Below are positions 22,293 through 47,620 of a stretch of 64,000 nucleotides of DNA, in pieces. The stretch comes from Rhynchopus sp. YZ270_cl-10 (taxonomy: Eukaryota): assembly GCA_964035575.1 (NCBI GenBank), contig OZ037843.1, positions 1,054,001 to 1,118,000 of the forward strand, given 5' to 3'. Position 1 is the first letter of the stretch. Every line of letters begins with the position of its first letter. The position numbers and the translations under genes are program-made. The notes beneath the pieces are model-generated. The model was not told the origin of the DNA. It searched no databases and saw nothing but the letters and a program-made list of their open reading frames with translations.

Positions 22293-25200
22293 TGTACTGG
22301 ACCACCATCAGAAACAGGCAACCACCGACTGCAAACACACTCAGGGCAAGCTCCACCAGACACCACAGACCACCACGGCAACAAATAACCCAAAACTCCC
22401 CAAACAATCAACAACCAACTGATCTCTTTTTTAGTGTGACTTGATACACAACAGCCCTCTCGTGAACAGTGCACCTTGGTACACCCTTACGTGACAGCTG
22501 CACCGGGCTGGACCCAACCATGCAGTCCTACATCCATTTCGTCATTTCGGGAGGAGGTGTCGGAACTCTGCTCTGTTGAGGTGGACTGCAGGCAGCAAGG
22601 GCGCATGGGATGTCTCTTTGCACGCTGTCTGGGAGGTCTGTGGAGCTTCGTGTTCTGTGGCGGATGTGTGAAGAGAGTGATGAGCACAACAACGTTGACA
22701 ACAGCAGCATGTGGCAAGCAGCTTGCAGCACGACACAATACGCGCAGGGGAAAGACACGTTCATCATTCTTCGGTTGTGGCACGTCGTCATTGTGCGTGT
22801 CTCCGTCGCTTCTGGCTTTGCTCGGGGGATTCGTCTCTGCTTCGTTTCGGACGTGCTTCAACCACAAGCTTCCTCCTCATTTGTTTATCTCCTCGTTTAT
22901 TTGTCTCCTCGTTTGTTTGTCACCTCATTGTTTGTCTCCTTGTTTATTTGTCTCCTCGTTTGTTTTGTCTCCTTGTTTATTTGTCTCCTCGTTTGTTTTG
23001 TCTCCTTGTTTATTTGTCTCCCCTAAGGAAATTATGTAACAATAATTCATTTTGCCACTTTTTGGCGTATAGTGGCCACAACCTGCAGAGAACCACCCCA
23101 GAATAGGTCAGAAACACCCTGTGAGGCAAAATTGGGTGAAAATTCGACTCCAGAATGTGAAAAAATGGGAAAAAATAGCAAAAAACTGGCTTTTTGGGGG
23201 TTTTGGCCATTTCGGCCAAAACCCCGATTTTTCATGAAAAAACATGAAAAAAACACCAAATTCGATGTTTCAGAGAGTCATTTGAGACCTATTTTGCCCC
23301 AAAAACGTGCTTGGAGTCCATTCTCGCCTGTTTTTCACATTTTTACGCCTTTTCTTTGGTGAATTTGGCCAAAATTTGGTCAAAATGACCCCCTGTCCAC
23401 CCCCTGTCTACCCCCTGTCCAAGGCCAGGATTTTTCCCCTGGCCATCACATAAAGTAGGGTATGGTGCAAATTTTGGTACATACCCCCCCAAAAAATGGT
23501 CTGCGGACCCAACGGAACCGTTTTTTTTACCCTTTAGAGGACTCAGAAGCACTAGAAATGGGGAAAATGAGTGAAAAATTGCCCTCCCCCCCAGAGAGGG
23601 GGGTAGGGGCGGTTTTTGGGCTAAAAAATGCCAAATTAGGGCCGCCAGAGGCCTCTTGGGGTCACTCTCCTGTGGAAATCGTACTCCTAGGGGTCCTGTG
23701 GGCCTGATTTCGACGAGCTGCACCCTTTTGGGCCCCCCGAACCGATCTTGGTTTGAAATATTGAGTCGAATATGACCCCTGGACAGGGGGTAGACAGGGG
23801 TCATTTTGACCTCAAAACACCAAAAAGCGGCCAAAAAAAGTACCTAAAGTGTCCAAAACAGGTCGGAATAGACTCACGGGACATCCCTGGGGTAGTTTTG
23901 TGTCCAAGCAGCTGTCATGATGTCGAAATTTTACAATTTTTTTGAAAATTTGGTCAAAAATGGTCATTTGTCCCAAAATGGCCCAAATGGCCGTTTTGTG
24001 CTTTATTTTCCATTTTTTTTGTGTTTCTGGTAATCAATCACCCAAAAAAAAGGACACATTTTTGCCATACCATACATCAGCCAAAATCTGCTTAGCCGTA
24101 TATAAAGGCCTGTTTTTGGAGCCACTTTAAAGTGATAAAAAATCCGCCAAAAAAATGTTGCGACCCCGGAATTTTTTCAGATTGCTCCGGGAATGCATAC
24201 AAGCGCCTTTTCGGGGGAAAATATTACACCCCCGGCCTCTCAAACGTACCAGACCGTGGACAGGTGGATTTTATCGATTTTATGGCCCGGGCACATTCTG
24301 AAAAATAATATTCTTGGAAAGATAGGGTGCGAAAACGTTCAATTCCGGGGTCGGACGCTCAAAAATATGCATCTGGGGCGAGCGAGTGGGCGGCGGGAGA
24401 ATGGGTACCATGTACTGGCTACTGTACAGTGTACTTTGTACGGTGAGGAAATCTCCTCTTTGGGTCCAACACAGTGGTGTCTCTAAATTGGATTTGTTTT
24501 GTCAAAAGTTGTCGATTTTTTTTTCTTTGGATTTATTTTTGACAAATCTTTCAATTGCGACCATTTTTCTCAACTGGAAACACACTCCACGGTACGCAAC
24601 TTTTGGTGGAGCCAACCACTCTTTCTGCACTGAAAATCCCCTGTATTACATGTACAAAGCATTGGAGCCACTTTGTTTTGACTTCTACTCCACTAAGGGG
24701 TGGCATCAAAACAAAAAAACGCGGACAATGTCCGCGTTTTGGGGGGGGGAGGGGGGGGGTCTGAAATTCCAGAAAACGCGGACATTTTGGGGTTTTTTTT
24801 TCCTCGAAAATTTTTTTCTTCACTGGGGTTGTACACGATTTTGACCAAAATTTATAAAAACTCGTCCATTTCGGCAAATTGACCCCACCACAGAACCGGC
24901 GGATTCAGGAAATGCAAATGCCGGTGTTTTCGGGCAAAATAAAAAATACAAGATGCCCGCGTTTTTTTGCAAAATGTACACGAATGGGGGCCCTTAAACC
25001 CCTGCTACCATGTGCTTCTACAGGCAAACACTTGGGCCCCTTTACCTTACACTGACGGGTTTTGACCAAAATCAAGAACTTGTCCATTTTGGCAAATTGA
25101 CCCCACCACAGAACGGACGGATTCGGGAAATGCAAATGCCGGTGTTTTTGCACATTTTCATGGTTTCAGCATCAGAGAGAGAAAATCTGGGTTGTGGGAT

Positions 25201-25604
25201 TTACCTTGGCCCCTTTACCTTACACTCATTTTGACCAAAACCAAGAACTTGGCCATTTCGGCAAATTGACCCCACCACAGCGCGGACAGATCCCGGAAAT
25301 GCCAATCGCGGCATGTTTTGGGGCTGAAAAATTTTCACCTGAAATTTTTTTTCAGCAGCATGTTTTGGCCGAAAATGGGCCCCACGTATTAGTGACCGGG
25401 CTCATATTTTCAAAAATTTAAGTGGTCAAAAAATTGTCCAATTTTCGAGATTGACCCCACCACTTTCTGGACGGATTCCGGAAATGCCAAAAAACTGTGT
25501 TTTGGGTCACGAATTTGCACCCCGTCACCCAAAAACCAGCAAAAAATAGGGGAAAAAAAAACAAAAAATGTCCGCGTTTTGGGGGGGGGGAGGGGGGGGT
25601 CTGA

Positions 25605-26530
25605 AATTTTTTGAGTTATGATACCACAGAGGCTCCAAACACGAAACCTCTGGCGAATATGGATTTTTTGGGGCTCAGGAGGGTGGTTTACCTGGTCACA
25701 GGCCTCCAAATGCGCCCAGAAACATGAAAAATATGAAAAATTGACTGGTTTTTCGGGGTTTTCGCACTTCGGGAAAGACGATTTTTTGACCTAAAAATGA
25801 GATTTTGGCCCCGAACAGAGCGTCTAGAGTGTGAAAAACAGATGTATTTGAAAAGATTCGATACTTTCGGGGTGATTTTGGGTATTTGTTCACTATCTGA
25901 TGTCCGTTTTTTGATATTTTTTCAAAAAAAGGGTGAAAAAACGCTGTCCGGGTGCTTGCAATAGCCGTGACTGTTGCAAAAGTGAATTTTTCTGTGTTTT
26001 TTGGGGTCATTTCTGGGGGTACAGAGAGAGTTTTGGGTCTGAAATTCGGTGAAAATGTGGTAGGAGGTTGGTAAATGGGGGTGCTCTGGGTGGTCAGACC
26101 ACCCAGCAGTGGTCAGAAAGTGGCCCAACGGGTTTGAGGAATGGCGCGCGCGCGGTAAACAGGACGATAACAGGACGATTTTTTGACCTAAAAATGAGGT
26201 TTTGGCCCCGAACAGAGCGTCTAAAGTGTGAAAAACAGATGTATTTGAAAAGATTCGATACTTTTGGGGTGATTTTGGGTATTTGCACACTATCTGATGT
26301 CCGTTTTTTGATATTTTTCTCAAAAAAAGAGTGAAAAAACGCTGTTTTCCCAAAAGTGCGAAAAGTGCGAAAACCCCGAAAAACCAGTCAATTTTTCATA
26401 TTTTTCATGTTTCTGGGCGCATTTGGAGGCCTGTGACCAGGTAAACCACCCTCCTGAGCCCCAAAAAGTCCATATTCGCCAGAGATTTTGTGTTTCGAGC
26501 CTCTGTGGTATCGTAACTCAAAAAATTTCA
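25605..26530. repeat. Foldback segment with ~160-bp inverted arms and an internal direct duplication
   Basis: 25605-25770 is the reverse complement of 26365-26530; 25778-25945 is repeated at 26175-26345. Confidence 0.75.
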
Positions 26531-26688
26531 CTAAAACAGGCTTTTTGCCCCCCCCTAGGCATACTTGTCCCCCCATTATGGGGAGGGGTAAAATATGGGG
26601 AAAATATGGGGGAAATATGGGGGATTTTCCCCCCCATATTCCCCCATATTTTCCCCATATTTCCCCCATATTTTTTATGGGGGAATAG

Positions 26689-26960
26689 ATGTACTGGTGT
26701 ACTGGTGTACTGGTGTACTGGTGTACTGGTGTACTGGTGTACTGGTGTACTGGTGTACTGGTGTACTGGTGTACTGGTGTACTGGTGTACTGGTGTACTG
26801 GTGTACTGGTGTACTGGTGTACTGGTGTACTGGTGTACTGGTGTACTGGTGTACTGGTGTACTGGTGTACTGGTGTACTGGTGTACTGGTGTACTGGTGT
26901 ACTGGTGTACTGGTGTACTGGTGTACTGGTGTACTGGTGTACTGGTGTACTGGTGTACTG
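26689..26960. repeat. (TGTACTGG)n microsatellite
   Basis: Perfect 8-bp array inside E1. Confidence 0.97.
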
Positions 26961-27302
26961 TGTACGAAGGAAGAGGTACTGCTTCTGTACGTTACTTACC
27001 TACCCACCCCTCCAACACAACATTTTCGACGTTTCTCTGACGCATGAGGATTACATGGTTGTAAGTCCCTATAAGAAGGGCAAACCTGCTGACGTTTTGG
27101 TATGGGCAGAAAGAAGGGCAACATTATGAGTTCCTCTCAGACTCCCCTGTTTTGCCACCGGTGTCAGGCATCAACAGGCCTAACCGCCCAGATGGTTTCA
27201 ACACAAAGCTTCACGACATCGGGCCTTCCGGTGCCATCGATAAGGCCCTCGACACAGACGGGTTAGCATTGCCCCTGCGTTTGACCTATAGCCCGCTTAC
27301 TG

Positions 27303-27997
27303 GTACACTAGTACACTAGTACACTAGTACACTAGTACACTAGTACACTAGTACACTAGTACACTAGTACACTAGTACACTAGTACACTAGTACACTAGT
27401 ACACTAGTACACTAGTACACTAGTACACTAGTACACTAGTACACTAGTACACTAGTACACTAGTACACTAGTACACTAGTACACTAGTACACTAGTACAC
27501 TAGTACACTAGTACACTAGTACACTAGTACACTAGTACACTAGTACACTAGTACACTAGTACACTAGTACACTAGTACACTAGTACACTAGTACACTAGT
27601 ACACTAGTACACTAGTACACTAGTACACTAGTACACTAGTACACTAGTACACTAGTACACTAGTACACTAGTACACTAGTACACTAGTACACTAGTACAC
27701 TAGTACACTAGTACACTAGTACACTAGTACACTAGTACACTAGTACACTAGTACACTAGTACACTAGTACACTAGTACACTAGTACACTAGTACACTAGT
27801 ACACTAGTACACTAGTACACTAGTACACTAGTACACTAGTACACTAGTACACTAGTACACTAGTACACTAGTACACTAGTACACTAGTACACTAGTACAC
27901 TAGTACACTAGTACACTAGTACACTAGTACACTAGTACACTAGTACACTAGTACACTAGTACACTAGTACACTAGTACACTAGTACACTATAGTACA
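27303..27997. repeat. (GTACACTA)n microsatellite
   Basis: Perfect 8-bp array inside E1. Confidence 0.97.
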
Positions 27998-28979
27998 CAA
28001 GGAAAACAATAGGAAAACCCCCATATTTCCCCCATATTCCCCCATAATCCCCCATATTCCCCCATATTTGTGCAGTATTCCTGCTGTATTCCCCCCATAT
28101 TTCCCCCATATTTCCCACAAAAGTGTAGGGTACCAAAATATGGGGGAATAGGGCCTCCCCATATTGGGGGGACAAGTATGCCTAGGCATAGTGTGCAGAC
28201 GAACAAAATGTTCGTCGATGTTCGTCATGGGGGGAAAAAAAATTTTTGTTCGTCGTTGTTCGTCGTTGTTCGTCGTTGTTCGTCGTTGTTCGTCAATACA
28301 CCCCGGTACAGCAGTACCGTCTTCATATGGACCGCAACGATGTGTACGTAACGTTCGGAACGCAACGAACGTAACGAACCGAACACAACCAGGATGGAGG
28401 TTTAGAGACCTGAAAAAAAATGGCCGAAACCCACCCCTGGGGGGGAGGGAGGGAGGGTGACCAAGCAACCTTGAAAAAGAGTCTCTGAAAAAAAAACATT
28501 CCTTAACACTGAGTGTTAAGGAATGTTTCCCCTGGGAACATCTACACGAAGGGTGGAGGAACAAAGGACAAAAAAAACTGGGTATCAAAAATCTTATTTA
28601 CAGAGTCTACCTTCTAGAAAAGCTGTACAGCAGAACACGAAAAAACAAAGGCAACGCTTACGCACCCGCTCCTGTGGGGACAACCCCGGTCTTTCGACGG
28701 GGCCGTCGCCCTTTGCGGGCACATTATTCACAGGTTGGGCAACTGATATGATGTCCAACAAAAACGGTCTGAAAGTTTTAAAAAAAAATCACACAACAAA
28801 AATCACGCAGCGCATCATGTGGACAATGTGCGGGGATTTGGGAACATCCACACGCAGGATGGAGGAACAAAGGACAAAAAAAACTGGGTATCTAGTCTAA
28901 ACAAAAATCTTATTTACAGAGTCTACCTTCTAGAAAAGCTGTACAGCAGAACACGAAAAAACAAAAGCAACGCTTATTA

Positions 28980-29457
28980 CAATGTGCGGGGATTTCCACG
29001 ATTTCCCCTGTTTTGACACCCAGCGCATCCTGTGGACAACAGATCTGCTCGCGCTGTCAAACGACGAGGTGTGGCACGAGTTCAAGGCATACAGAAATCA
29101 GCCTGCCTCATGGCTGATGAGGGGTGTGTACTGGATTACTGGTGCGAGGGGAACACGAAGTTCCCCAAGTTGTCTCTCAAAGTCAAAGTTGTCGCTGGGT
29201 TGCGGACACCGCTCTCCGTGACGAGCGTGGAAGGCGTGTTCTCCACCGCAGAAGCGGCAAAGAACAAGAGGACGCGCTCAGTGAAGGCTGGAGTACGCCC
29301 GCCGACTGTTCCTCAGGAGGTCTTGCGACATTCTGGGGCTTCTCGGTGGGAATAACAAGTACCGAGAAGCCCTTGACGCAGACACGATGAGCGGTGAGGA
29401 GTTGGAAGAGGAATTGGAGTAACTTAATACTGAATTCGAAATAGAAATTATCTCATA
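28980..29457 (+). pseudogene. Inverted, frameshifted partial copy of the E2 transposase 3' end
   Basis: GDFHDFPCFD..LSNDEVW..LDYWC..LRTPLSVTSVEGVFSTAEAAKNKR mirrors 29472-29950. Confidence 0.85.
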
Positions 29458-29471
29458 ACCGGTAATAAGGA

Positions 29472-31943
29472 TCAGATAATTTCTATTTCGTATTCAGTGT
29501 CATACTCCAATTCCTCTTCTTCCGACTCCTCATCGCTCATCGTGTCTGCATCAAGGGCTTCTCGGTACTTGTTATTCCCACCGAGAAGCCCCAGAATGTC
29601 GCCAGACCTCCTGAGGAACACTCGACGGGCGTACTCTTCGGCCCCCACCGCGCTCTTCCTCTTGTTCTTTGCCGCTTCTGCGGTGGAGAACACTCCGTCC
29701 ACGCTCGTCACGGAGAGCGGTGTCCGCAGCCACGCGACAACCGCTGCAGACAACAGGGGGAACTTCTTCTGTGTTCCCCTCTTGCACCAGTAATCCAGTG
29801 CGCACACCTCATCAGCCAGAGCTGAGGCAGGCTGAGTTCTGTATGCCTCGAACTCCTTCCACACCTCCTCGTTTGACAGCGCGTGCAGATCGACTGTCCA
29901 CAGGCTGCGCTGGCTGTCGAAACAGGGGAAATCGTGGAAATCCCCGATCAACACCGTCTCTGGCTCAAAAATTAGCAGCAGCTCCCACCTGGAGCGTGAC
30001 TTCCACGAATTGTACATATTCTCCATCAGATCCTGTAGCGGCCGGGAGGTAGCTTCGCTCTTCATCATGCGCACGTACTCATCTAGGGTTTCGAGGCTGG
30101 TCTGTGCAGGAGAAGGATTCTGTATTTTGTTGATGACACCCATTGCAGGCTGGAGGAAGTCAGCAAGCAATACGCAGTCATCGACGTTCCTCTGCCAGTG
30201 GCCCTCTTGTATCAGCCGGGCCAGCACCCTGAGTGTCTCCGGTTTTTTCGCTCTGCCCATCTCGGAGTCCAGGAACTCCAAGAGGACGTCCGCCCGGTCC
30301 CGGATGTGGATCACGAGATCCATGGCGGCGCCCCAGCGGGTGTCGGAGGTGGAGGTCGGCTGTGCGGGAGCGACGACCTCAACGTTCTGAGCGTCGACGT
30401 CCACTTCCTCCCGCACGAACTGACGGGCCTTGCCCAGCACCTCCTCATCCGTTTCCGCAGCTGTGAGGCGCAGTAACGACCGCAGTGCTCGCACCTTCTC
30501 CTGCTTCAGCGCTGCCTTCACACGCAACCACGTGTCCTTCGTGCCACTCGCCTGCTCCTGTTCCTTCTGGATTTTCGCCAGTTGGAACAATTTCCATCTG
30601 CGACGCCTGGCCTTGCATCCGAAGAATTGGCTTATGAGCGTCGTAAATGCGTACGCATATTTGAACGCCTCCTTCACAGTGACTTTTAACACCGAATTAA
30701 GATGATGGCCCAGGCACCAAGCAATTTCCTCCGCGGCATCCGTCAGGCCCCTCAGATTTATCGATCCGTAGTCCGCCACTACCGTACTCCGAACAAGTTC
30801 ATAGTATGAGCGAACTTCGTGCAACAGATTCGCGACGTCCATACCCCTGTCCTGTTCACCGTCACAACGAGCTCGAACCATCAGGAGCACTGCTTCACCC
30901 CCCACAAAACCCACCACGGCTAGGAGGGCCATACCGATGTATCGAACCCCCGTGCCGTCTATCCCGAGGGCGACGGTTTTGCCTGACAATTTTTTTTTAA
31001 TGGCCTGCATTGTTTCCTCCGTGAATTGTTTGCTTTTATTGAGCAGTGAGCGCGGCTGCGGAAGCGTGACGAACATCGAGAGCACCAGTGCCAGAATACA
31101 TGCCTGCTGATGGGTTATGCCCGCAATTATGAGGGCAAGGGCCCATGCTCTTTTGAACGCCGTAGGGGAAACAATTGGCGTCAATACGGCTTGAGTCGGT
31201 GTTGGGGTAGGTGCGCTGGTCGTTTTCTGCTGCGCCTTCTCCTCCTTCTTCCCCTTCTTCTCCTCCACCCTCTTCGCGTGTGTCTTGTTCCGACCGTCTA
31301 CGTGGGATTTTACGCTCGTAATTTCTTGGTGCTTTATCATACAGCTACAAAGTGTGCACCAGAGCACCTCGTCGTCCCCCGTCATTCCGTCGGTCAGCAG
31401 CCCCTCTCTCACCTCGAAGGGCACGTCCTTGACCGCCCTGACCTCTATGCCAAACTGCTGGGTTTCTGTCAGTCCCTGGATCCTCGCGTCGGCTGTGATC
31501 TGTGGTTTTTTCCGTCGCGCCTTTTCAGCCTCGGCCTTGACGTCCGCCTTTAACTTGTTCGTGTCATTGGCCTTTTCTGTGGGTGTCAGTCCAGTCTTTG
31601 GGGAAGGTTTTGCTGCCGTCTTCGCAGAACTTTTCGCGCTTGGTTTTCCCGCAGGTTTTGCTGCTGCCTTTCCCGCAGGTTTTGCTGCTGGTTTTTCCGC
31701 AGGTTTTGCTGCAGGTTTTGCTGCAGGTTTTGCTGCTGATTTTTTTGTTGTTTTCTTTCTTGACGCCTTCCTCACGGGCTTCACATCGCTCGACTCGCTC
31801 TCGTCACTCCCGCTGCTACTGGGCTCCCTTTTCCGCTTCGACATTTTTTTTTGGGGGGTTTTTGAATCTGTTTTTATTGATGATGCCGCATTGGGGTGTG
31901 GGAAGGAAGAGGAATTGTTGGAAATTTCACTAGAAATGCACAT
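29472..31943 (-). CDS. hAT-superfamily transposase
   Basis: Zn finger WCTLC...H...H; LGIDGT; VVADYG; CLGHHLN (CxxH); DTRW; hATC dimerisation domain LDYW..FPLLS..LRTPLSVTSVDGVFS..R..VFLR; N-terminal AKPA repeats. The true start may be MSKRKRE. Confidence 0.9.
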   Translation of the reverse strand: MCISSEISNNSSSFPHPNAASSIKTDSKTPQKKMSKRKREPSSSGSDESESSDVKPVRKASRKKTTKKSAAKPAAKPAAKPAEKPAAKPAGKAAAKPAGKPSAKSSAKTAAKPSPKTGLTPTEKANDTNKLKADVKAEAEKARRKKPQITADARIQGLTETQQFGIEVRAVKDVPFEVREGLLTDGMTGDDEVLWCTLCSCMIKHQEITSVKSHVDGRNKTHAKRVEEKKGKKEEKAQQKTTSAPTPTPTQAVLTPIVSPTAFKRAWALALIIAGITHQQACILALVLSMFVTLPQPRSLLNKSKQFTEETMQAIKKKLSGKTVALGIDGTGVRYIGMALLAVVGFVGGEAVLLMVRARCDGEQDRGMDVANLLHEVRSYYELVRSTVVADYGSINLRGLTDAAEEIAWCLGHHLNSVLKVTVKEAFKYAYAFTTLISQFFGCKARRRRWKLFQLAKIQKEQEQASGTKDTWLRVKAALKQEKVRALRSLLRLTAAETDEEVLGKARQFVREEVDVDAQNVEVVAPAQPTSTSDTRWGAAMDLVIHIRDRADVLLEFLDSEMGRAKKPETLRVLARLIQEGHWQRNVDDCVLLADFLQPAMGVINKIQNPSPAQTSLETLDEYVRMMKSEATSRPLQDLMENMYNSWKSRSRWELLLIFEPETVLIGDFHDFPCFDSQRSLWTVDLHALSNEEVWKEFEAYRTQPASALADEVCALDYWCKRGTQKKFPLLSAAVVAWLRTPLSVTSVDGVFSTAEAAKNKRKSAVGAEEYARRVFLRRSGDILGLLGGNNKYREALDADTMSDEESEEEELEYDTEYEIEII

Positions 31944-32772
31944 GTCTTGTAAATGAAGACACAGAGGAAAAGCGTTGAGAGAGATGGCGAAGAAAGCGCG
32001 AGAAGAACGAAGAAAGTAAAGGTGGCCCTTAGGCTACTACTGTGGATTTTCGCAGAGCGACGACCTCAACGTTCTGAGCGTCGACGTCCACTTCCTCCAC
32101 GAACTGACGGGCCTTGCCCAGCACCTCCTCATCCGTTTCCGCACGTGTGAGGCGCAACGTCCGTTGCTCGCACCTTCTCCTGCTTCAGCGCTGCCTTGAC
32201 ACGCAACCACGTGTCAAGGCAGCAGAATTGACTAATGAGCGTCGTAAATGCGTACGCATATCCGAACGCCTCTTTCACAGTGGCTTTTAAAAACGCGGTT
32301 AGATGGTGACCGTTCTGTTGAGGAGCGCGGCTGGGGTGATCCCCGCAATGATGAGGGCAAGAACCAAAAAGCACCGGAGGGAAAAAAAAATAGCCAAGCA
32401 GGCTAAGGATTCTGAGAAACAGAAGCTTGCAAACGCCAGGTGCCAGGGCTAAGGTGGCGAAGAAAGCGCGAGTAGAAGGAAATAGGGGTAAAACAAACTC
32501 TCACTTTTATTTTTTTTGGTATTCCGGAGGGGGGCAATATTGACAGGCCCCTGCCACAAGGGAGGCCCCCCCCCCCCCCCTCCCCCCCCTCCCCCCCTCC
32601 CCCCCCTCCCCCCCTCCCCCCCTCCCCCCCCCCCCCCCCCCCCCCCCCCCCTGTGGCAGGGACCTGTTCGTCGGTTTTGTTCGTCGATGTTCGTCGACGA
32701 ACCTCGACGAACAAAACCGACGAACATTTTGTTCGTCGACGAACAAAAATGTTCGTCTGCACACTATGCCTA

Positions 32773-32804
<32 letters not shown>

Positions 32805-32805
<1 letters not shown>

Positions 32806-33786
32806 AGGGGGTATCTTAAGGGGGTGAAATGGCCAAAAAATCGAACTTTTTCGCCTGGGTGCCAAAAAAGGCACCAAACCAGAAAATATGTCCCTTGGGA
32901 CCCCAAAAATCGAATTCCGCCCGGTTTTGAGCACTTTTGACCACTTCTGAGCGACTTTTTTGCATTTTTTAAAAAGTGACCACCAACTTGTACCTGCCCA
33001 CCCCCCCGTAGGTAGAGCAACTCACATATCCATCAGCCTCAGTGTTAGCCAGGGGCCAGAAAAGCCCCCAAAGCCACATATTTCCACCCCAGAACCTATC
33101 CCGAGGGGTACCCAGGTGGTTTCGGGGTGTTTAGGGGACTTCGTGGAACTTAGAACCATGTTTCAAAAAGGGTACAAGGACGTGGTCCCTTGAGAGGGCA
33201 AGCCCTTGGTACGAGTTCCTGGACACTTCTTGAAACATGGTTCTAAGTTCCACGAAGTCCCTCTAAACACCCCGAAACCACCTGGGTACCCCTCGGGATA
33301 GGTTCTGGGGTGGAAATATGTGGCTTTGGGGGCTTTTCTGGCCCCTGGCTCACACTGAGGCGTGATGGATATGTGAGTTGCTCTACCTACGGGGGGGTGG
33401 GCAGGTACAAGTACTGTAGGCGCTTTTTTAAAATTGCATTTCAGGCATCATCTGAGTGTTTCTGTGTCAAAACTGGGGCGCTGGTGCGTTTTTTGGGTCC
33501 CCTAGGTGGTTTGGTACGGTTTTCGGGGACTTCTGAGGTTCTGAAGATCAAAATCGGGAAAATTGCTTATCGAGTACAGTGACCGGGGGGTGGGCAGGTA
33601 CAAGTTGGTGGTCACTTTTTAAAAAATGCAAAAAAGTCGCTCAGAAGTGGTCAAAAGTGCTCAAAACCGGGCGGAATTCGATTTTTGGGGTCCAAATGGG
33701 CCTATGGTGTGGTTTTTTTGACCTCAGGGGGAGTTTCCCAATTTATTGCCTACTTCACGTTTTTTGACAGCTTAAGATACCCCCTA
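32805..33786. mobile_element. Train 1, element E3: foldback TIR element (TAGGGG end family)
   Basis: TIR tagggggtatcttaag / cttaagataccccc-ta; internal palindrome centred near 33200. Confidence 0.88.
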
Positions 33787-33956
33787 GGCATACATAGCGT
33801 GCGAACGGCTCATTCGCATCATTCGCATCCTGTTCGCATTGGGTATTCGCATCCTGTTCGCATTGGCCAATGCGAACAGGATGCGAATGACATGCGAATA
33901 ACATTTATTATGGGGTGGCGACAGGCAAGTTCTCATTTTTTGGTCAATTTCCGCAC

Positions 33957-34310
33957 TACACAGTACACACAGTACACACAGTACACACAGTATACACAGT
34001 ATACACAGTATATACAGTATACACAGTATACACAGTATACACAGTATACACAGTATACACAGTATACACAGTATACACAGTATACACAGTATACACAGTA
34101 TACACAGTATACACAGTATACACAGTATACACAGTATACACAGTATACACAGTATACACAGTATACACAGTATACACAGTATACACAGTATACACAGTAC
34201 ACACAGTATACACAGTATACACAGTATACACAGTATACACAGTATACACAGTATACACAGTATACACAGTATACACAGTATACACAGTATACACAGTATA
34301 CACAGTATAC
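33957..34310. repeat. (CAGTATACA)n microsatellite
   Basis: 9-bp array with some CAGTACACA variants. Confidence 0.97.
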
Positions 34311-34713
34311 CATAGCTGATAAGCTAATAAAGCCTAATAGGATATTAGCCTATTTAAGCCTTATAGAATAGGCTAATGAAACTGGAATAGGCTAATATTT
34401 TATTAGCCTATTCCAGTCCTTCCCAGCTACCACTGGTGGTACGGTGGTAGCTGGCTTAACCCGTTAAACAAATCCGAAAAATCCAAAATTTAAGGCCAAC
34501 TCCGTTACAGACACAACACAACTTATTTCTCTTGTGTTTTTCACTGATGAGCGTGAGTGAGGTGTATGTTACAGCACCGACTGCAGCCTACGTCTAAGAT
34601 GGCATATAATAGGCTATTAGCCCAATATTAGCCTATTATAAGACATACTGTGGGTGTTATAACGTTATCGATAACGTTATAACAAGTGTTATTTTGGAAT
34701 AACGTTATTCAGC

Positions 34714-35313
34714 AGTACAGTACAGTACAGTACAGTACAGTACAGTACAGTACAGTACAGTACAGTACAGTACAGTACAGTACAGTACAGTACAGTACAG
34801 TACAGTACAGTACAGTACAGTACAGTACAGTACAGTACAGTACAGTACAGTACAGTACAGTACAGTACAGTACAGTACAGTACAGTACAGTACAGTACAG
34901 TACAGTACAGTACAGTACAGTACAGTACAGTACAGTACAGTACAGTACAGTACAGTACAGTACAGTACAGTACAGTACAGTACAGTACAGTACAGTACAG
35001 TACAGTACAGTACAGTACAGTACAGTACAGTACAGTACAGTACAGTACAGTACAGTACAGTACAGTACAGTACAGTACAGTACAGTACAGTACAGTACAG
35101 TACAGTACAGTACAGTACAGTACAGTACAGTACAGTACAGTACAGTACAGTACAGTACAGTACAGTACAGTACAGTACAGTACAGTACAGTACAGTACAG
35201 TACAGTACAGTACAGTACAGTACAGTACAGTACAGTACAGTACAGTACAGTACAGTACAGTACAGTACAGTACAGTACAGTACAGTACAGTACAGTACAG
35301 TACAGTACAGTAC
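34714..35313. repeat. (CAGTA)n microsatellite
   Basis: Perfect 5-bp array of ~600 bp. Confidence 0.97.
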
Positions 35314-35706
35314 CCCTGCTAACGACCCACCCAGAGTGGGACAAAAAAAGCTCATCCCAAAATATGCCGATCACAAAAAAATCACAAAAAACCCCGATCA
35401 TCCAACAATCACACACCCACAGAATTCACACACTACTATAACATTCGCACTACGTTCGCATCATTCGCACTATGTTCGCACTGTGTTCGCATCGTTCGCA
35501 TCATTCGCACATGCGAATATAGTGCGAATATAGTGCGAATGATGCGAATGATGCGAATGATGCGAATGATGCGAATGATGCGAATGATGCGAACGACAAT
35601 GCGAATGAATGCGAACAGGATGCGAATGCATTCGCACATGCGAATATATGCGAATGGTCATTCGCACGCTATGTATGCCTAGGGGGGGGGGGGGGGGGGG
35701 GGGGGG

Positions 35707-36673
35707 TAGGGGGTCCGACTGTGAGTAAAATTACCGTACCAAAAACTCATTATTAAACTTCTGGTCATCTCCAAGGCAACTGCGGGTGAAACACTCCCTC
35801 AGAGTGGGTCACAGGGGGCCTGTGGGCCGAAAAACGACCCAGAAGCCACCCCAGAATACAAAAAAATGGAAAAAAATAGTGAAAAAACGGCTTTTTTCAC
35901 GTTTTGGCCATGTTGGGCAAAACAGCGATTTTTCAAGAAAAAAACCAAAAAACCCCCGGAACCCCAATCTTTCCAAATTTCCACCTCATCCCCACCCAAA
36001 CACCGCAAAAACACGATAGAAAATCGTCTTTAAAAACACACTTTTTTCAAAAAGGCTATTATGGAACCCGCCTGATGACCTTTTTGAAAAAAATGTGTTT
36101 TTAAAGACGATTTTCTATCGTGTTTTTGCGGTGTTTGGGTGGGGATGAGGTGGAAATTTGGAAAGATTGGGGTTCCGGGGGCCCTTTTTCGGGGGTTTTA
36201 AGCAAAAATATGGCCGAGAATGTGGTCGGAGCAATGGTGGCAGTGCTGTCCCTAGGGTGTCCCTAGCACTTTTGGGGGTGTTTTTCAGTGTGAAAACACC
36301 AAAAAAACACTTCCAAAAGTGTCAAATATGCCCAAAACAGGTTGGAATGGACTCACAGGCCACTTTTGGGGTATATTTGTGCCAAAGGAGGCTTTGTGAT
36401 GTCAAAAAATATGCCGTTTTTTGGTTTTTTTCTTGAAAAATCGCTGTTTTGCCCAAAGTGGCCAAAACGTGAAAAAAGCCGTTTTTTCACTATTTTTTTC
36501 CATTTTTTTGTATTCTGGGGTGGCTTCTGGGTCGTTTTTCGGCCCACAGGCCCCCTGTGACCCACTCTGAGGGTGTTTTTCACCTGCAGTTGCCTTGGAG
36601 ATGACCAGAAGTTTAATAATGAGTTTTTGGTACGAAATTTTATACACAAGTCTATTAGGAGTCGGACCCCCTA
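35707..36673. mobile_element. Train 1, element E5: foldback TIR element
   Basis: TIR tagggggtccgact / agtcggaccccc-ta; long inverted arms with centre near 36070; internal sequence shared with E7. Confidence 0.88.
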
Positions 36674-36957
36674 GGGGGGGGGGGGGAAAGCGAACCCCCC
36701 GTGTGAACCGCAAGAACCCCACAAAATTGGGTCCGGGGGGCAGGGCATATCCTAAATCTGAGGTCTGTGCGTCCAAATTTTGAAAAAGGGTGCAAAAAAA
36801 AAAGGGGGCGGATTTTTTTTTTTTTTTGATTTTTTCCCCAGGTTTCATCGTTGGTGAAGCTTTTAAACGTCGGCATTTGCATTTCCGGAATTTGTCCGGC
36901 CAGTGGTGGGGTCAATTTGCCGAAATAGACATGTTCTCGTTTTTGGTCAATTTCCTC

Positions 36958-37141
36958 ACAGTACAGCACACAGTACACAGTACACAGTACACAGGTACAC
37001 AGTACACAGTACACAGTACACAGTACACAGTACACAGTACACAGTACACAGTACACAGTACACAGTACACAGTACACAGTACACAGTACACAGTACACAG
37101 TACACAGTACACAGTACACAGTACACAGTACACAGTACACA
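36958..37141. repeat. (CAGTACA)n microsatellite
   Basis: 7-bp array. Confidence 0.96.
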
Positions 37142-38622
37142 CGGGGTCCACCAAAAATCGACATTTCGCAGAGTCACCAAAGTGTAAGATTTTTTCGGCA
37201 TTGGAAAGATTGGGCCATTTCTGAGAACTTCAATAAATCAGATCTCTGATGGTGTGGCTAACTCCAAAAATAAAGTGTATTTTTTGTACTTCTTTTGTAC
37301 TTTTTTTGTATACCCTAAAAAGGGGTTTTTTTTATTTTTGGTACCAATTCGTACTTTCCCAATCGCCCCAAGTCATGGCACCCAAAAGTTCCTGGCGAAG
37401 CCACGGTACGCAACATTTCTGAAAAATGTCGACATAAATTGGCACTGTCGTTGGTAATTATCGTCAGTTCCGTAAATTTCACCTAGTATTTTGCTAGAAC
37501 GAAAGTTTCTGGCGAAGCCAGGTGCGCAACATTTCAAAAAATTGCGCTTATACTTGCACATTTGTGCTGCTGAACTATGTCATGGGAAAGGGTGGGTTGC
37601 AATCTTGCGCCGCAGGCGCACGGTACGCTACTTTTTTCGTTGGTCATATCCTTCTTTCTCACTCCTCATTGGGTTCTACGAGCTCCGTCCGTAAAATGGT
37701 GGGGTCACAACATGCAGCAAAGTTCACAGCTATGCAAACTGCCCCCACGTTCACCTTGCACTTTACCCTCAGTGGTCAAGTACTGACCATATTTTACACC
37801 AAACCTGAAAATGCCCTGTAAAAACTGATGCATGCATTTTAGGTCAAAAATACTCATTTCTCAGCGCAAAGTGACCCCATCACAGCACGCACGGACTCCC
37901 GAGAATCGAAGAAGAAAAAAAAATTCCCCAATTTTTTGTAGGCCAAAAAAAAATTCCCCCCCGACCCCGACCCCCAAAAAGTTTATACAGGGAAATAATT
38001 TTTCGCGAAAAACACCCCCAAAATAAAGTGTAATTTTTGTACTTCTTTTGTGATTCTTTTGTGCTGTTTTTGTACTGGATTTAGCCACACCATCTGAGAG
38101 ATTTATTTTTAATTCCCATTTTCATATCGGGAGTTTACGTGGAAACGCCTTTGAAACCGTGCGTTCCTTAAGGATTCTATAGGCAAAACAGGCGCTTTGC
38201 ACCAAAAATCACGAGTTTCAACACAAAACCCGGTTTTGGCTCAGACCCATGTATGTGGCGCCGGAAACACGCTTGCGCGTTGTCAGAACCCTGCGTGGGC
38301 CACACACGGTCGTGCACACGTGCCCTTTGCCTTGTCACACACCCAAAAACCCACACACACGTCATATATTCACAGCGGAAACACTACAACCATTGCTGGG
38401 AAAATGTTTGGTTCACAAAGTAAAAATAACTATTCATCTGATGAAATAAAGTGCACTTTACTAGCGTCGCGAACCCCGCAAATGGGGTTGTCAGGACCAC
38501 CACAAGTAATCTTTTACGGCTGCGCCCTTTTTGCACCAACCTCTAAAAACCCACCTTTTTCCTTTCCATCCTCCACACCACAAACTAAGGCAGAAATACA
38601 CCTTTACACACCACAGTGCACA

Positions 38623-40341
38623 ATGGGCTGTCTCGAGCGTGTACTGTCGCTTGACGGGACACTGGACAAGCAAAGCAGACATATACGAAATGTATTCTTT
38701 ATTTTCAACTGCTTAGTATTTGCAACCTCGTCTTCCTTCATCCTGTTAGAGGTGGCATCCTTCCGTGGGAGCTACGTCTTTATAGTATGTGCGATGTGCT
38801 CTTTGCTGTGCAGCATCTGTTCTATGCTAGTCATTATGTTTAAGTACGAGCTGACCACATCCGTCATGGTGTCAGTCGGCGGACTGTACGCTGTTTCGCT
38901 GCTGGGCAGTGACCTGAGTGAACGCACTGAATCTGGATATGCCTGGCCATTGATGGTGCTTGTGGTGGACTATCTCCTGGTGATGCAGGTGCCCACACGG
39001 TACAGCACAGTTGTCGTGGTGTGCACACTGGTGTATTTGGTCATTATTGCTGCAGAAGAATTGTGGAGGTTTGGTCTGCTCGACATGCCCGGGCTCGCAC
39101 CTCAAGACCGTCGACGTTCCTTCGTGGATAGCCTGGGTGACTGTGATGTGCTGCCTTGCAAGCAGAATAGAGCTGGGAAAGAGCTTGTGGGTGCAGCGTC
39201 CGTCTTCGTCCTTGACTTCATCACAACGCGAAGATTTGCACGTGGTCTCCTGAAGGAGCAGGCATCAATGCAACGCACAATCGCGACAGTGCAGGACATC
39301 GCCTCGCTCCTTGCTGGCTACGACGTGGAGAAGGTGGCGGAGCTGCTGGAGGAGCACGGTGGTGAGCTGCCTGAGGGGATGACGACAGCACTGCGGAAGT
39401 TGGAGCAGAACCTGCGTGTGTACAAGGCGTACCTCCCGCAGACGTGTCTGCCGTTTGAGGACGAGAAGGACGAATGTGTGGAACCTGGTGGTGAGCTGGA
39501 TGGCACTGACAGTAACGATGAAAGCACAGGGTCAGCGGCAACATCGAACACGTCTGTTGCAGTGCGACGCACTTCCTTCCGTGCACAGTCGCTGCTGCTC
39601 TCATCCACAAATGCAACACTGCTGATACTGAACATCAAAGACACCCTGCACCGCCTGGAGGAGGACAGTGCACGCTTCTCCGACCTCTTCACAACTGTTC
39701 TTCTGAAGACCCTGCAGGCAACAGACAGCAGACGTGGGATGGTGGACGTCTTTGTTGGGGACAGGATCCACTGCTCGTTCAACACGTCGAAGCAGTGTGC
39801 GTCGCACGCAACCTCAGCACTGCATGCAGCAAGCATGCTCATGAGAGCTGGCCTGGCAGCCTCTGTGAACGTGGGTGTTGCAATGGGGACAGTGCTGCGT
39901 GGTGACATGGGTTGTGATGTGATGCGTCGCTTCAGCATGGTGGGGACACTTGTGCGCAACGTGCACGGGATGGAACGTGCAGGACGTATGCTGGGGTGCG
40001 ACGTTGTCTGCAACAGGATGTGCTTCAGCGACGCTGAGTGCGAACACGACCTGCGTCTGCTTCCGTGCAAGGTGGAGGTTGCTCGAGACTGCGAGGCACA
40101 GGTTGTGGCTGAGCTGGTTTCGAAGAACGAAGAAGCCTCAACTGCAGCAGACGAGTGGATGTACCTGATAGGCGGGAAGAAGCACTGGGATTTGTACAAC
40201 ACAGTGGTGCGTGGGTACCTGCGTGGTGAGAGTTGTTACACGGACGTTGCGAGGGCGTGGGTGGAGGCGGGTGGGAGTGGCACACCAGCACATGCAGTCC
40301 CTTCCGGGACGTGCAGTGTTGTGTGTTCCTATCTTCGGTGA
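38623..40341 (+). CDS. Multi-pass membrane protein with a degenerate class III nucleotidyl cyclase domain, paralog 1
   Basis: About 5-6 hydrophobic N-terminal helices, then KAYLP, VDVFVGDRIHCSFN, NVGVAMG..GDMG..RRFSMVG. The ATG follows ccacag, where similarity to paralog 2 begins. Confidence 0.85.
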   Translation: MGCLERVLSLDGTLDKQSRHIRNVFFIFNCLVFATSSSFILLEVASFRGSYVFIVCAMCSLLCSICSMLVIMFKYELTTSVMVSVGGLYAVSLLGSDLSERTESGYAWPLMVLVVDYLLVMQVPTRYSTVVVVCTLVYLVIIAAEELWRFGLLDMPGLAPQDRRRSFVDSLGDCDVLPCKQNRAGKELVGAASVFVLDFITTRRFARGLLKEQASMQRTIATVQDIASLLAGYDVEKVAELLEEHGGELPEGMTTALRKLEQNLRVYKAYLPQTCLPFEDEKDECVEPGGELDGTDSNDESTGSAATSNTSVAVRRTSFRAQSLLLSSTNATLLILNIKDTLHRLEEDSARFSDLFTTVLLKTLQATDSRRGMVDVFVGDRIHCSFNTSKQCASHATSALHAASMLMRAGLAASVNVGVAMGTVLRGDMGCDVMRRFSMVGTLVRNVHGMERAGRMLGCDVVCNRMCFSDAECEHDLRLLPCKVEVARDCEAQVVAELVSKNEEASTAADEWMYLIGGKKHWDLYNTVVRGYLRGESCYTDVARAWVEAGGSGTPAHAVPSGTCSVVCSYLR

Positions 40342-40468
40342 TTGTGTGGCTATTGCGTTCATGTTTAAAGTACAGTGGACTCACGTCTACTGGCACTGTT
40401 TTGCTGACCAAAATCTTCGGTAGAACAAGTTTTCCACAACCTTCCTTCCCCCCCCCCCCCCCCCCCTA

Positions 40469-41371
40469 GGCATAGGTGCCCGCCGAGTCGTTTTTGGGCG
40501 AGTTGTCGGAACTTTACGATTTCACCTAACAACTCGCCCAAAACTCGGACAACTCGGCCACAACTCGCCCTATACTCGGCACAACTCGCCCTATACTCGG
40601 CACAACTCGGCCACAACTCGGCCACAACTCGCCCATTTTTACAGGCAAAAACATACAGGGATGGGAGGTGACGTTGTAAGGTTACACACATGTAACGTTG
40701 GTACAACACATAATCTCAAGAAAAACAACCAGGGCTAAGGCCAAACGCCACTCATTACATGCACCTTGTCATATGACTAGTCATAGGTGGTAACTAGGTC
40801 GCGGTGGTCCATGGGCCACCGTGCACTTTTGGTAATTGCTGGGGGGAATGGGATATACTCCGTACATGGATACACACAGAACACACGGTTCCCCAGACAT
40901 CTGTCAGGCAATCACTGATTCACTTCACACAGGTCGGGCAGGCGCTGCCTGCCCATCCTCTTTTCCTGTCTGCTATCGATTCCAGGTTCACAACGTTCAC
41001 ACGTTTAGTCAAAATGCTTTGGGCGACGACTTCCTTTGGGATACACAAAACCACACAAAGCGCACATTCACAGACCAGCTGTGAAGCGTGGGATGCACGA
41101 GATAAAACGTGATGTGGTGTACCTGTGTACCTGTGTACCTGTGTACCTGTGTACCTGTGTACCTGTGTACCTGTGTACCTGTGTACCTGTGTACCTGTGT
41201 ACCTGTGTACCTGTGTACCTGTGTACCTGTGTACCTGTGTACCTGTGTACCTGTGTTTTTGTAGCCATAAAAAATCCCAAAAAAAAACAACTCGCCCAAA
41301 AAAAATGGGCGAGTTGTTGGCCGAATTTGGGCGAGTTGCCGAGTTGTTTTAACTCGCCGGGCACCTATGCC
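40469..41371. mobile_element. Train 2, element E6: non-autonomous TIR element (GGCATA end family)
   Basis: TIR ggcataggtgcccg.cgagt / actcgccgggcacctatgcc; caactcg subterminal repeats. Confidence 0.88.
41118..41255. repeat. (TGTACCTG)n microsatellite
   Basis: Perfect 8-bp array inside E6. Confidence 0.97.
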
Positions 41372-42563: not shown

Positions 42564-42578
42564 CCCCCCCCCCCCCCC

Positions 42579-44469: not shown

Positions 44470-46718
44470 TTATGTGCCCCTCCCCCTCTTCCCCTTTCCC
44501 CTTGGTCTGTGCACTCTCAGTGTCTGCTTGTCCGATGGCGGGGTGTACGTCTCCGTGGCAATAGCCTTGGCAACGTCCTTCTTCAGTCGTGGCTGAGTAG
44601 CAGGGAGCCCCAATTTCTCATACTGTTCACGAAGCTCGTGGGAGTTAAACTTCTTATCGAGTCTGTTTTCCTCCGCCACCTTAGTTTCCACTGCGTGTAT
44701 CCTCTTGTACACTTCTCGGATTGACTCCACAGGCTCCTTCTGCGCAGCAACTATGTCTTTCATTTTTAATGGGATGTGCTCCAATGATTTGGAGTTGTAT
44801 CCCCACATGGCCAGGCCGAGAACAGTGCATGGGTTCGTCTGATTCATGAGCCTGCCAGAGACCCAAGCAAGGTAGCTGTTAAACCCCTCGACATAGTCGT
44901 TGGTGCATGCGGTAGCGTTTCTCTGGGCTTCTGTGGCGTTCGAAGGCTGTGGCCAAGAAGAGAGGTAGCGGGTCCACGTTTCCTCCATCACTCCCGCAGT
45001 TTCCTTCAGGAGCTTCTTGAACTTCATGACGTTACCCTTTGTTGTGGCTATTGTTTTGGCCTGGGTAATGCCGACCAGCTCCTCAGACACCCACTCAGGA
45101 AACACCCCCTTTTTCAATACAGAGATGAGCTCTGTAATGGCAGGGTACCCAACTTCTTCGGCGTACTTGGAGTTTTTAACTCCGTCCTTCTTCAGGTACT
45201 GCAATGCCTTCAGAAAAAAGGCATTCACAAGTGTGAGCACCGCAAGCACAAGGCGGGTTTCCTTGTCTTCGAGGAGGTGCTCCAGGGCATCATTCTCAAT
45301 GGTGAGATGTCCCTTAGTCACCAAGTCCTTGTACCTGTCAGTGTGGTGATACGGGCAGCATTCGTACTAATGTACGCAAAACGGCTGCCGACTTCACGCT
45401 GCAGAGTCATGCCCGCCGGCCATCTGCCTTCTTCCGCAATGGCGTAAGCCCTCACTGCCGACCCGCTCTTCGTCGTCCACGCAGTTGCTCCGGCGTCACA
45501 AGCGGTGGCGAAGCTTCCGATCCAGGTCTTGAGACGGTCTGAGCCGTCGTCAAGTGTATTATCCAGACCATCAAGCAAAACCGTCTCGGCTGCGGACACA
45601 GTGTTCGCAATCTTGTGCGTGGCACAACCCTCGTGTTCGCAGCCGCAGAGAGGAGCGGCCCCGACCTGATCAGGTGCATGATCCCCGGTCAGTGTCGTCG
45701 TCGGCTGCACCTCTGGGCAGAGTCCCGACAGTGCGGTCTTGCACTTCGTAATCTGGCAGGCCTTGTCTTTGGCTCTACCACGCACACCCGTCTCGACGTC
45801 AAGGATGAGGGAGGCGACGGTGTTGTCCTTCTCGTTGGCGGCCCATGACACAGATACTGCGGAGTACTTGTGACCAAAGGCAAACCTTGCCCCCCCACCC
45901 ACGTCTTGCCCCATGCTGACCGCAATGTTCCCCTTGCGCTTCAGCATCCTTCCGATGAGGGTCCGAGAGAGGGGAAGTGCGAGCTTGCTCCAGTTCCGGA
46001 TGGTGCCTTCGGAGATGGGATCCATGGGGGTTTTCGTTATTGCCGAGTAGAACGTGGCAACAACTTCTCCGGTCGTGTCGGCACCAAGACCCAATCCACG
46101 CAGAACAAGCGCAAGGCGGACAATGCCGGCGGAGTACCTCTGGTGCCCCTCGTGTGTGATGAAGACGGGCATCACACGAGCCCGGAGGGTGTCGTTCTCC
46201 TGCTTCAGGGCAGCCACCCGTGCATCGCTACGCCGCACAAGTTGTTGCAGCCCCTTCACCTTCGCACGCAACTTCTCCAACGTGGCGGTAGCGTCCTCCT
46301 CATCCTCCATGCACTCCTCCTCGGCGGACAGGTCCGAGAAGTCCACTGGTCGGGCGACTTCATCGTCCGAGCTGCTGCTGGTGACGTCTTGATGCTCAAG
46401 TCTATGCTTGCGCACCCTGTCTGTGGAGCTGCGCCTCTCCGACTCCTCCTTCTCTTCCCTGCTGCGCACACGGTCGCGGTGACGCTGCTGTCGGCAGTTG
46501 TCGGCGGTGGCGCAGGAGGGGGTGTGCTCGCAGGGAATTGCGCGTCCGTGCACAGGGGTGTCCGAGTCAGCGATCTTCAGTCGCTTGCGTGGGGAGTCCT
46601 CGCCTTCCTCTGCCGCCTCTGCCCTACGAGTGTGAGCGCGTTCGCGACTACGCCTCGACGAACAGGTAGACGGGTTCTTGCATGGGGGAACATGCTCGCA
46701 GGCCATCTTAGGGGGCAT
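44470..46718 (-). pseudogene. DDE transposase (hAT/MULE-related CxxH class) split by a 1-nt frameshift near 45340
   Basis: ORFs 45318-46718 and 44470-45324 overlap. Motifs MGQDVG, TGDHA, CATHKIAN, GSRF, TNDYVEGFNS; two N-terminal CEH.P.C....C repeats. Confidence 0.7.
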
Positions 46719-47620
46719 AGTGATATCTGTACTCGTGACGTGAAGGGTGGAATGCGAGGGGAGGACACAAAAGGGAGGGAAGGATTTTTTTTTTTTTTTG
46801 TGGCGGGAAGCAGGTTTGGTAAGCGTCCGAAAGTGTCCAAGCGTCCCCACTCTTGCATTGGGGTTTGGGGTGCATCCCTTAACGTACTTTCCCCCAAACA
46901 TGGTGGGTTACACCCCCCAGGAGGTGGCAGGATGACATGTGGGGGTCCTTGGAGGCCAACGACGTGTACTTACAACTTTAACTTGAAAAAAAATATGAAA
47001 AAATACGCAAAAAACGCAGCAAAATCGGGCTAAAATAGGGCCTCGGAGCCCAAAAAACCCAAAAAAATGTCATATTTTCGACTGATAAAGCCCCAAAAAC
47101 ACATATAAACACCCTGATAACCCCAGAAAAATCATTTTGGGTGTGTTTTGGACACTTTAGATGACGCTACAGCACTTTGGGTGGTCATGCAACACATGCG
47201 GGGTATTTGAGGGAAAAGTGCGTTTTGCAACCGTTACGCAACCGTTACGCGATGCAAGAGTGGATTTTGGGGCGCATCCCTCGACGTACTTTCCCCCAAA
47301 CATGGTGGGTTACACCCCCCATGAAGTGGCAGGATGACATGCGGGGGTCCTTGGAGGCCACAGACATGTACTTACAACTTTAAATTGGATTTTTTTTTGA
47401 AAAAAAACGGGAACCTCTTTTTCAGGCTTCCACCTTTTGACGTCAGGCCAGTGTCCTAAATGATGCTGCCACACCCTGAGGGGGAGGTGTGCTGTCTGTA
47501 AACTCTGTGTGGCAACAACGGGGAGGTGACCTCCGTATATCGGCAACCCGCACGTCCTAGATGTGAAAAACGGCACCAGCCGGGACACGGTCCCGGGTTT
47601 ACTCCGGATAGAACAAAAAA

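Follow-up and report, generated by a model that had tools for sequence, protein, structure and literature searches.

In a 64,000-nucleotide window of the genome of Rhynchopus sp. YZ270_cl-10 (assembly GCA_964035575.1, contig OZ037843.1, positions 1,054,001 to 1,118,000 of the forward strand), five terminal-inverted-repeat (TIR) elements stand end to end in what we call a train, and a second train lies to its right; positions below are those of the window. We consider it probable that the first train, a non-nested stack of two DNA transposon groups, was built by one-way piggy-backing, with the ends of one group supplying sites on which the other docks. As read off the window sequence, the first train (26548-36686) has the order C8-TA-E1-TA-E2-TA-G32-E3-E4-TA-G25-E5-G13, in which E1 to E5 are the elements (Table 1). 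These make up 10,053 of the 10,118 bases from 26556 to 36673, the other 65 being four TA dinucleotides and the G32 and G25 runs, and each element has perfect TIRs (20, 23, 16, 21 and 14 bp for E1 to E5, counted from the TA). Judged by their ends, the elements of this train are two groups, not five kinds: E1, E2 and E4 have TAGGCATA ends in common (the GGCATA group), and E3 and E5 have TAGGGGGT ends in common (the TAGGGG group). The TA at the left of E4 is supplied by the right CCCCCTA of E3, and the right end of E5 together with G13 forms a further site of this kind, CCCCC-TA-G13, which is unoccupied. Within the 64-kb window, no terminal repeat was found to pair with the leftmost C8-TA of this train.

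The second train follows the grammar of the first. It contributes E6 to the GGCATA type and E7 to the TAGGGG type, and E5 and E7 are 95-97% identical over their subterminal arms. The best reading of E8 and E9 gives them CCTAGGGG...CCCCTAGG ends; it is based on these two elements and would leave exactly C9 on each side of E9. Across both trains there are nine elements, none of which interrupts another. The original prediction, made from the sequence of the window alone, had described five elements over 10 kb separated by nothing but linkers and arranged in tandem and not nested, and both descriptions hold. Its view of the five as unrelated does not, given the two groups of ends and the kinship of E5 with E7, nor does the quasi-palindrome that it saw once the elements are removed: the match 'gcttt...aaagc' is only 5 bp, and we rejected it as a meaningful site. 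The flanks of train 1 are repeat-derived and not unique host DNA, with a fold-back element directly to the left (25602-26530) and, further left, an older relative of E5 and E7 (23020-24019; 68-79% identical). The second train is enclosed by tandem paralogous host genes (38549-40409 and 48282-50108; 90% identical), for which no convincing Pfam match was found. Their 3' flanks diverge just before the site of the train, so that they yield no empty allele.

All eight ends of the GGCATA-type elements in the window (E1, E2, E4 and E6) lie in CCTAGG, a sequence of which the window has 19 occurrences where a fourth-order Markov estimate predicts 6.3. Copies of E4 elsewhere also stand behind T-CTAGG; the earlier claim that such elements always sit in CCTAGG thus stands for the window and only there. 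Target duplications of 2 (TA), 4 (CTAG) and 6 bp (CCTAGG) each fit four of the four elements, and a duplication of TA or CTAG is most likely. A duplication of 8 bp was rejected because it fits none of the four, and 10 bp likewise fits none. [quoted passage not shown] Because these 8-bp-duplication CAGG-ended elements share the window, the short duplication is a trait of the GGCATA group and not of the genome. The subterminal repeats of E1, E4 and E6 differ, and therefore each probably has its own cognate enzyme.

The TAGGGG group is seated differently. E3, E5 and E7 each have the identical homopolymer on both sides once GGCATA inserts are removed (3/3), and their ends read TAGGGG(G/A)T, set within homopolymers where the length of a duplication is unreadable. 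The simplest reading is that the TA belongs to the ends of these elements and that they duplicate part of the run. Other TIR elements of the window are likewise seated in homopolymers, namely in T runs (53832-56011 and 10953-11334) and, with CACGACG ends, between G runs (15605-18959); homopolymer targeting may be general in this genome. A further TIR element at 60431-61162 (ends CCTAC9GTG...CACG15TAGG) is flanked by TA and has a paralogous empty site with one TA near 50380, and in this case the end of the element itself includes the G run and the TAGG.

Copies of these elements were sought in public sequencing runs in the form of assembled contigs. Five runs contain part of E2, four of them with 76-90% of its sampled words, and they come from two studies. 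The joint between E3 and E4 was surveyed over 33745-33826 in the contig graph of runs X1 to X4, with 32 of 90 pieces listed. Junction k-mers that join the right end of E3 to a GGCATA element were present in 4/4 runs and in both studies. The depth of this joined form was 245, 285, 1125 and 408 against 643, 672, 2283 and 887 for the E3 end, which is to say that a GGCATA element follows the E3 right end in 0.38, 0.42, 0.49 and 0.46 of E3-end depth, shares that are contig-depth ratios and not copy number. Past the junction the path splits in X2, X3 and X4, with a third to a half of it entering E4, and other GGCATA elements therefore follow other E3 copies. The earlier prediction that a TAGGGG-type end beside a G or C run makes the site occupied by GGCATA elements is supported, and the docking recurs elsewhere in the genome.

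Viewed from the other partner, CCCCC lies ahead of the E4 left end in 0.64, 0.65 and 0.76 of depth in X1, X2 and X4 (X3 did not enter this ratio), compared with a background of 1/162 CTAG half-sites with a C-run context (CCCC before CTAG) outside the trains in the window. The possibility raised at the outset that family members elsewhere would be mostly solitary and at varied targets does not fit these contigs, in which most E4 left ends follow CCCCC. Loose ends of the graph show further partners: an inverted E3 left end docked on E4 in 4/4 runs, an E7-type end docked on E4 in X2, a longer C run before E4 in X3, and C runs after other E3 right ends (clear in X2 and X4, a mixed consensus in X1). 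Solo E4 flanks read T-CTAGG (X1, X2 and X4) and AT-CCTAGG (X1). We disregarded, as possibly chimeric, one loose end of X3 in which the left end of E6 joins the E3 end (place 33772). At 33781, loose ends show relatives of E3 that end in GATACC, followed by TTAGGGTG or TTGGGTGGG, and not in CCCTA, a hint that related elements exist with different ends and G-rich flanks.

Taken together, these observations are consistent with a growth mechanism of four steps. Elements of the TAGGGG...CCCCTA type, whose flanks are homopolymers, probably take G or C runs as targets, in whichever orientation; each insertion would copy some of the run, which would grow and stay a target. As follows from the sequence, in either orientation exactly one end of the element would then read at least five C, TA and at least five G. 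Elements of the GGCATA...TATGCC type occupy the TA of the CCCCC-TA-GG site made at a TAGGGG-element end; hAT-fold transposases like that of E2 probably mobilize them, and they would prefer this site and use lone NCTAG sites less often. Insertions of both groups would then land between elements, so that none is interrupted and the train grows. If orientation is random, only about half of the E3 right ends can face a G run, and since 38-49% of these right ends are occupied, most of the available E3 sites would be filled, although the numbers are small. The dependence looks one-way: a GGCATA insertion repeats only TA, CTAG or CCTAGG and makes no homopolymer.

Several points weigh against this reading. 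The occupied shares, as depth ratios, do not count copies; in units of one solo-flank contig, X2 holds only about 6 E3 and about 22 E4 copies, of which only about 3 of the 22 E4 copies are shown docked on an element at the left end. CCCCC is missing from a quarter to a third of E4 left ends, solo copies exist, and one diverged copy of E3 apparently continues into DNA that is not a homopolymer (mixed consensus, X1 and X3). Of all the train junctions the contig-graph survey covers E3/E4 alone, where none of the listed records extends 31 letters both ways and the best of them extends about 30 and 14, and one run may be the assembly's own source. Additionally, no empty alleles were seen, so that the insertion order and the duplication length given here are putative.

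Among alternatives, one that is compatible with piggy-backing concerns the ends themselves. The GGCATA group might truly end CATA...TATG with a 6-bp duplication (NCTAGG), making it a less unusual hAT, and we regard this as doubtful but as deserving serious weight. The 6-bp duplication does fit all four window elements, and 5'-CA ends are hAT-like, which would favour it. The base three to the left of the TA centre, however, varies among E4 copies (C or T), whereas the matching element-side G is unbranched in 4/4 runs (contigs start at 33784 or 33785); variation to the left and right alike would be expected of a symmetric 6-bp target. As contigs drop rare variants, the argument is not decisive.

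The main rival to piggy-backing holds that both groups are merely drawn to G or C runs, in which GGCATA elements take the one CTAG that such tracts offer, so that the neighbour's end is incidental. Plant SaTar arrays, as far as the accessible text on them goes, arise in this way (PMC5907723), the most abundant class of E4 left ends comes after CCCCC with no partner element shown, the left C8-TA of train 1 is without a shown element origin, and the other TIR elements of the window noted above sit in T or G homopolymers. We nevertheless consider shared attraction unlikely to suffice, since a C run, TA and a G run in succession are rare without a TAGGGG end, as the 1/162 background indicates, and since in the window both E4 and E6 abut a TAGGGG-type end exactly, and roughly 0.4-0.5 of E3 right ends are occupied.

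A stronger form of the docking idea, and the one first proposed for this locus, is a mutual landing pad in which either group makes targets for the other and growth, driven by the regenerated CCTAGG, is open-ended. The regenerated site is indeed re-used at E1-E2, and E8 and E9, if CCTAGG-ended, would bear a GGCATA target at both ends. But GGCATA insertions add no G or C run, so that the TAGGGG group gains nothing from them, and the depth of CC+E4 in X1 (1050) barely exceeds that of CCCCC+E4 (1000). The sequence TATGCC before the E4 left end accounts for at most about 50 of the 1559 depth units of that end in X1, and in X2 and X4 the listed contig is unbroken from 33780, with no branch. E4 left ends after another GGCATA end thus look rare, with E1-E2 as the less common case, and we find both reciprocal target building and strong self-propagation quite improbable.

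A few old arrays, or a single one, multiplied by segmental duplication or by movement as composite units, are highly improbable as the source of the joined forms in place of independent insertions. The E3-E4 joint is found in all four runs, and unequal exchange can expand tandem transposable-element dimers, according to the accessible text of PMC5932611, but at least six neighbours occur at the E4 left end (E3 right, E3 left, E7-type, a long C run and two solo flanks), the joint of the E3 right end with E4 amounts to about one copy in X2, and other E3 copies are followed by other GGCATA elements. Least credible of all is a misjoining of repeats at homopolymers, an assembly artefact that had been named beforehand as a danger: G32 and G25 are hard to read and no record spans train 1, but the E3/E4 junction k-mers recur in all four runs and both studies, every element has intact paired ends, and the window contains no N.

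The only long intact open reading frame of train 1 is the transposase of E2 (P0001), which on the basis of its predicted model is a divergent hAT-fold transposase with Asp as the predicted third catalytic residue. Its motifs comprise D359, D421, C440xxH443 and R566-W567, with D779 where Hermes has E572, a catalytic residue. The order D-D-CxxH-RW followed by a C-terminal dimerisation region is present in the E2 family as in the hAT superfamily. In E2 itself the Pfam family Dimer_Tnp_hAT was hit only below the cut-off (E value 0.061); in 2 of 14 scanned relatives it was hit above it. A profile of 14 sequences (E2 and 13 relatives) matched Hermes with an E value of 1.6e-7, aligning D248, CxxH and E572. 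The predicted model of E2 (mean pLDDT, the predicted local distance difference test score, 76.7) contains the RNase H core and helical insertion domain of the hAT fold; Foldseek placed Hermes at ranks 1-10 (E value 2.4e-8), and VIA-align gave a Z of 23.1 over 385 aligned residues (root-mean-square deviation 5.2), with integrase cores as the next family at a Z of 11.5. A single-sequence fold prediction (pLDDT 39.9) was set aside.

A full scan of 1.84 billion representatives returned 21 relatives of E2. Ten of them were looked up: one cluster belongs to Diplonema papillatum (13 members; KAJ9439401.1 is an example of the E2 homologues of this species), one to Flectonema neradi, and the remaining eight are ENA records. 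Named relatives are diplonemids only, which makes the host, too, probably a diplonemid. A word-index search with the E2 protein found nothing, a profile search recovered only two of the known matches, and metagenome contigs and viral contigs yielded no related loci. In the column of Hermes E572, Asp stands in 10 of the 10 covering rows (4 of the 14 rows end earlier or are gapped there), and the VD motif also occurs in 7 of the 13 listed D. papillatum proteins, while the adjacent Arg573 of Hermes is kept in just 1 of 10 rows. Because the Asp is conserved in all ten rows, it is a family trait and not a decay of the E2 copy, and the idea that the gene is dead for want of Glu was rejected on the same ground. 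Weighing on the other side, Glu replaces Asp in an 81-residue match (P0013) and in the decayed inverted copy of the gene's 3' end, which has SVEGVFS where the E2 gene has SVDGVFS. This inverted copy lies directly downstream of the gene (within 28987-29946), so that a read-through transcript would fold back, possibly as a self-silencing hairpin; decayed direct copies of pieces of the gene lie at 32055-32311. We tentatively propose, as a possibility short of a probability, that E2 represents an undescribed diplonemid hAT branch with a DDD active site and a 2-4-bp duplication that homes on junctions of transposon ends with G or C runs and fills most of them.

E9 carries a transposase-like protein as well, split here by a frame break into two pieces (P0002 and P0003). 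At least three shorter copies of the frame lie on other contigs, without its first half and 98-100% identical over the matched part. The protein has no match in Pfam, in PDB sequences or with the E2-family profile, and it may represent another undescribed family.

The published systems compared below are characterized from the portions of text available for each. By analogy, the closer known counterpart of the train is the plant SaTar array and not the integron to which the train was first likened: a tyrosine-recombinase integrase or other site-specific recombinase, attI/attC sites and a cassette promoter were not found in the train, whose enzyme is the hAT-fold transposase of E2. SaTar elements are microsatellite-targeted MULEs of guayule, rice, sorghum and citrus in linear, non-nested arrays (PMC5907723). 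As in the train, different TIR families are joined by simple repeats without nesting, autonomous members lie inside, some copies lie outside arrays, and the repeat may lengthen upon insertion. SaTar MULEs differ in occupying mostly (TA)n tracts in one tier, with 9-10-bp duplications off target, whereas the train has G or C homopolymers or bare TA as linkers and no MULE is shown in it; it also has a second tier, with a hAT-fold enzyme, at the fixed TA of the first tier's end and without a linker. MITEs insert beside or into other MITEs (PMC5172404), and rice MITE multimers are more often nested (PMC5907723). The P element, hobo and R1 form tandem dimers through double insertion (PMC5932611), in which, as at E1-TA-E2, one target duplication is common to both copies and the target survives the first insertion; those dimers, however, unite same-family copies at host sites (the duplication is 8 bp for P and for hobo), whereas the train joins different families at an element-made site.

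Transposons with strict targets offer a second set of comparisons. Dada elements are DDE transposons of the C/DxxH group with strict targets, and two of their families stand in tandem with one shared duplication, but they target small-RNA genes, lack TIRs and make 6-7-bp duplications (PMC3706591). Kolobok, also of the C/DxxH group, has the fixed 4-bp target TTAA and RR...YY ends (PMC9587614); the GGCATA target is CTAG and the E2 model matches Hermes, Kolobok being compared by description only. E2 resembles the hAT superfamily in its fold, its motif order and its short TIRs with subterminal repeats, and departs from it in the Asp at Hermes 572, in the loss of Arg573 in all but one of ten rows and in a duplication of 2-6 bp instead of 8 bp. 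Excision in the superfamily proceeds by way of hairpins formed on flanking DNA. The TAGGGG ends of E3, E5 and E7 resemble those of hATm (TAGGGTG ends, 8-9-bp duplication; PMC6004678), a lead only, as no transposase ties these elements to hATm and no coding partner of E3, E5 or E7 was found within the window. MULEs have a MuDR-type transposase and make 9-11-bp duplications, to be compared with the C9 on both sides of E9 if it is CCTAGG-ended, although the E9 protein is without a Pfam or PDB match. For diplonemids, the available main text of the D. papillatum genome paper mentions DNA transposons of the TATE, MULE and Helitron kinds, contains no word beginning with 'hAT' and defers the study of transposons (PMC10161547), and the available text of a paper on diplonemid introns goes only as far as to suggest that G/C-ended introns have MITE-like origins (PMC12621601). 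We found no report of G/C-run targeting, a second tier, a hAT lineage of DDD type or the diplonemid elements described here in a literature search that left Repbase, subscription journals and supplements outside its scope. The array form is already known, whereas the G/C-run tier, the docking second tier and a short-duplication hAT-fold enzyme of DDD type appear to be novel.

Few eukaryotic DNA transposons are strict in their targeting, and the length of the target duplication serves to define their superfamilies. With Asp substituted for the catalytic Glu and a duplication of 2-6 bp, a hAT-fold enzyme would allow the determinants of stagger and target choice to be tested against Hermes structures. 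A target made by another element's end would be a two-party route to harmless insertion. If the proposal of a homing DDD branch is true, this would be a eukaryotic DNA transposon with a safe haven made by a second transposon group, and a compact sequence-specific integrase. Element docking may also help to explain the long repeat blocks between diplonemid gene clusters.

Table 1. Coordinates of the two trains and of the genes within them (window positions).
Feature	Position	Strand	Remarks
C8 + TA, left end of train 1	26548..26557 (C8 26548-26555)	+	Without partner repeat in the window
E1, GGCATA type, non-coding	26558..28182	.	20-bp TIR; CCCCCATAT-type subterminal repeats
Single TA common to E1 and E2	28183..28184	.	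TATGCC-TA-GGCATA
E2, GGCATA type with transposase gene	28185..32770	.	23-bp TIR; TTGTTCGTCG subterminal repeats
Inverted, decayed copy of 3' end of E2 transposase gene	28987..29412	+	85-94% complementary to 29515-29946
E2 transposase frame (P0001)	29472..32033	-	853 aa between stop codons; Met31 and Met64
TA + G32 linker	32771..32804 (G32 32773-32804)	+	Run length as assembled
E3, TAGGGG-type fold-back element, non-coding	32805..33786	.	16-bp TIR
E4, GGCATA type, non-coding, multi-copy	33787..35679	.	21-bp TIR; TTCGCAT subterminal repeats
TA + G25 linker	35680..35706 (G25 35682-35706)	+	Run length as assembled
E5, TAGGGG-type fold-back element, non-coding	35707..36673	.	14-bp TIR; kin of E7
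G13, right end of train 1	36674..36686	+	
Second train, C19-TA-E6-E7-C13-E8-C9-E9-C9	40448..48143	.	Flanked by two paralogous host genes
E6, GGCATA type	40469-41371		Second train
E7, TAGGGG type	41372-42563		Second train
E8	42577-44183		Second train; boundary inferred
E9	44193-48134		Second train; boundary inferred
E9 transposase-like frame, two pieces (P0002, P0003)	44470..46721	-	CxxH and TNDYVEGFNS motifs

Outside the trains, a non-LTR (long terminal repeat) retrotransposon frame of 2030 aa occupies 253-6345 on the minus strand, and in it an OTU-like protease domain precedes those for endonuclease, reverse transcriptase and RNase H. Internal arrays are found in E1, as (TGTACTGG)35 and (ACTAGTAC)86, and in E4, as (TACACAGTA)39 and (CAGTA)120. 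Microsatellites of this GTAC- or GTA-based kind lie within several unrelated repeat elements of the window (8726-8836, 15778-15881, 26690-27990, 33957-35313, 36963-37141 and 41117-41256), with CAGTACA, CCAGGTAC, TGTACTGG, ACTAGTAC, TACACAGTA, CAGTA and GTGTACCT as their units.

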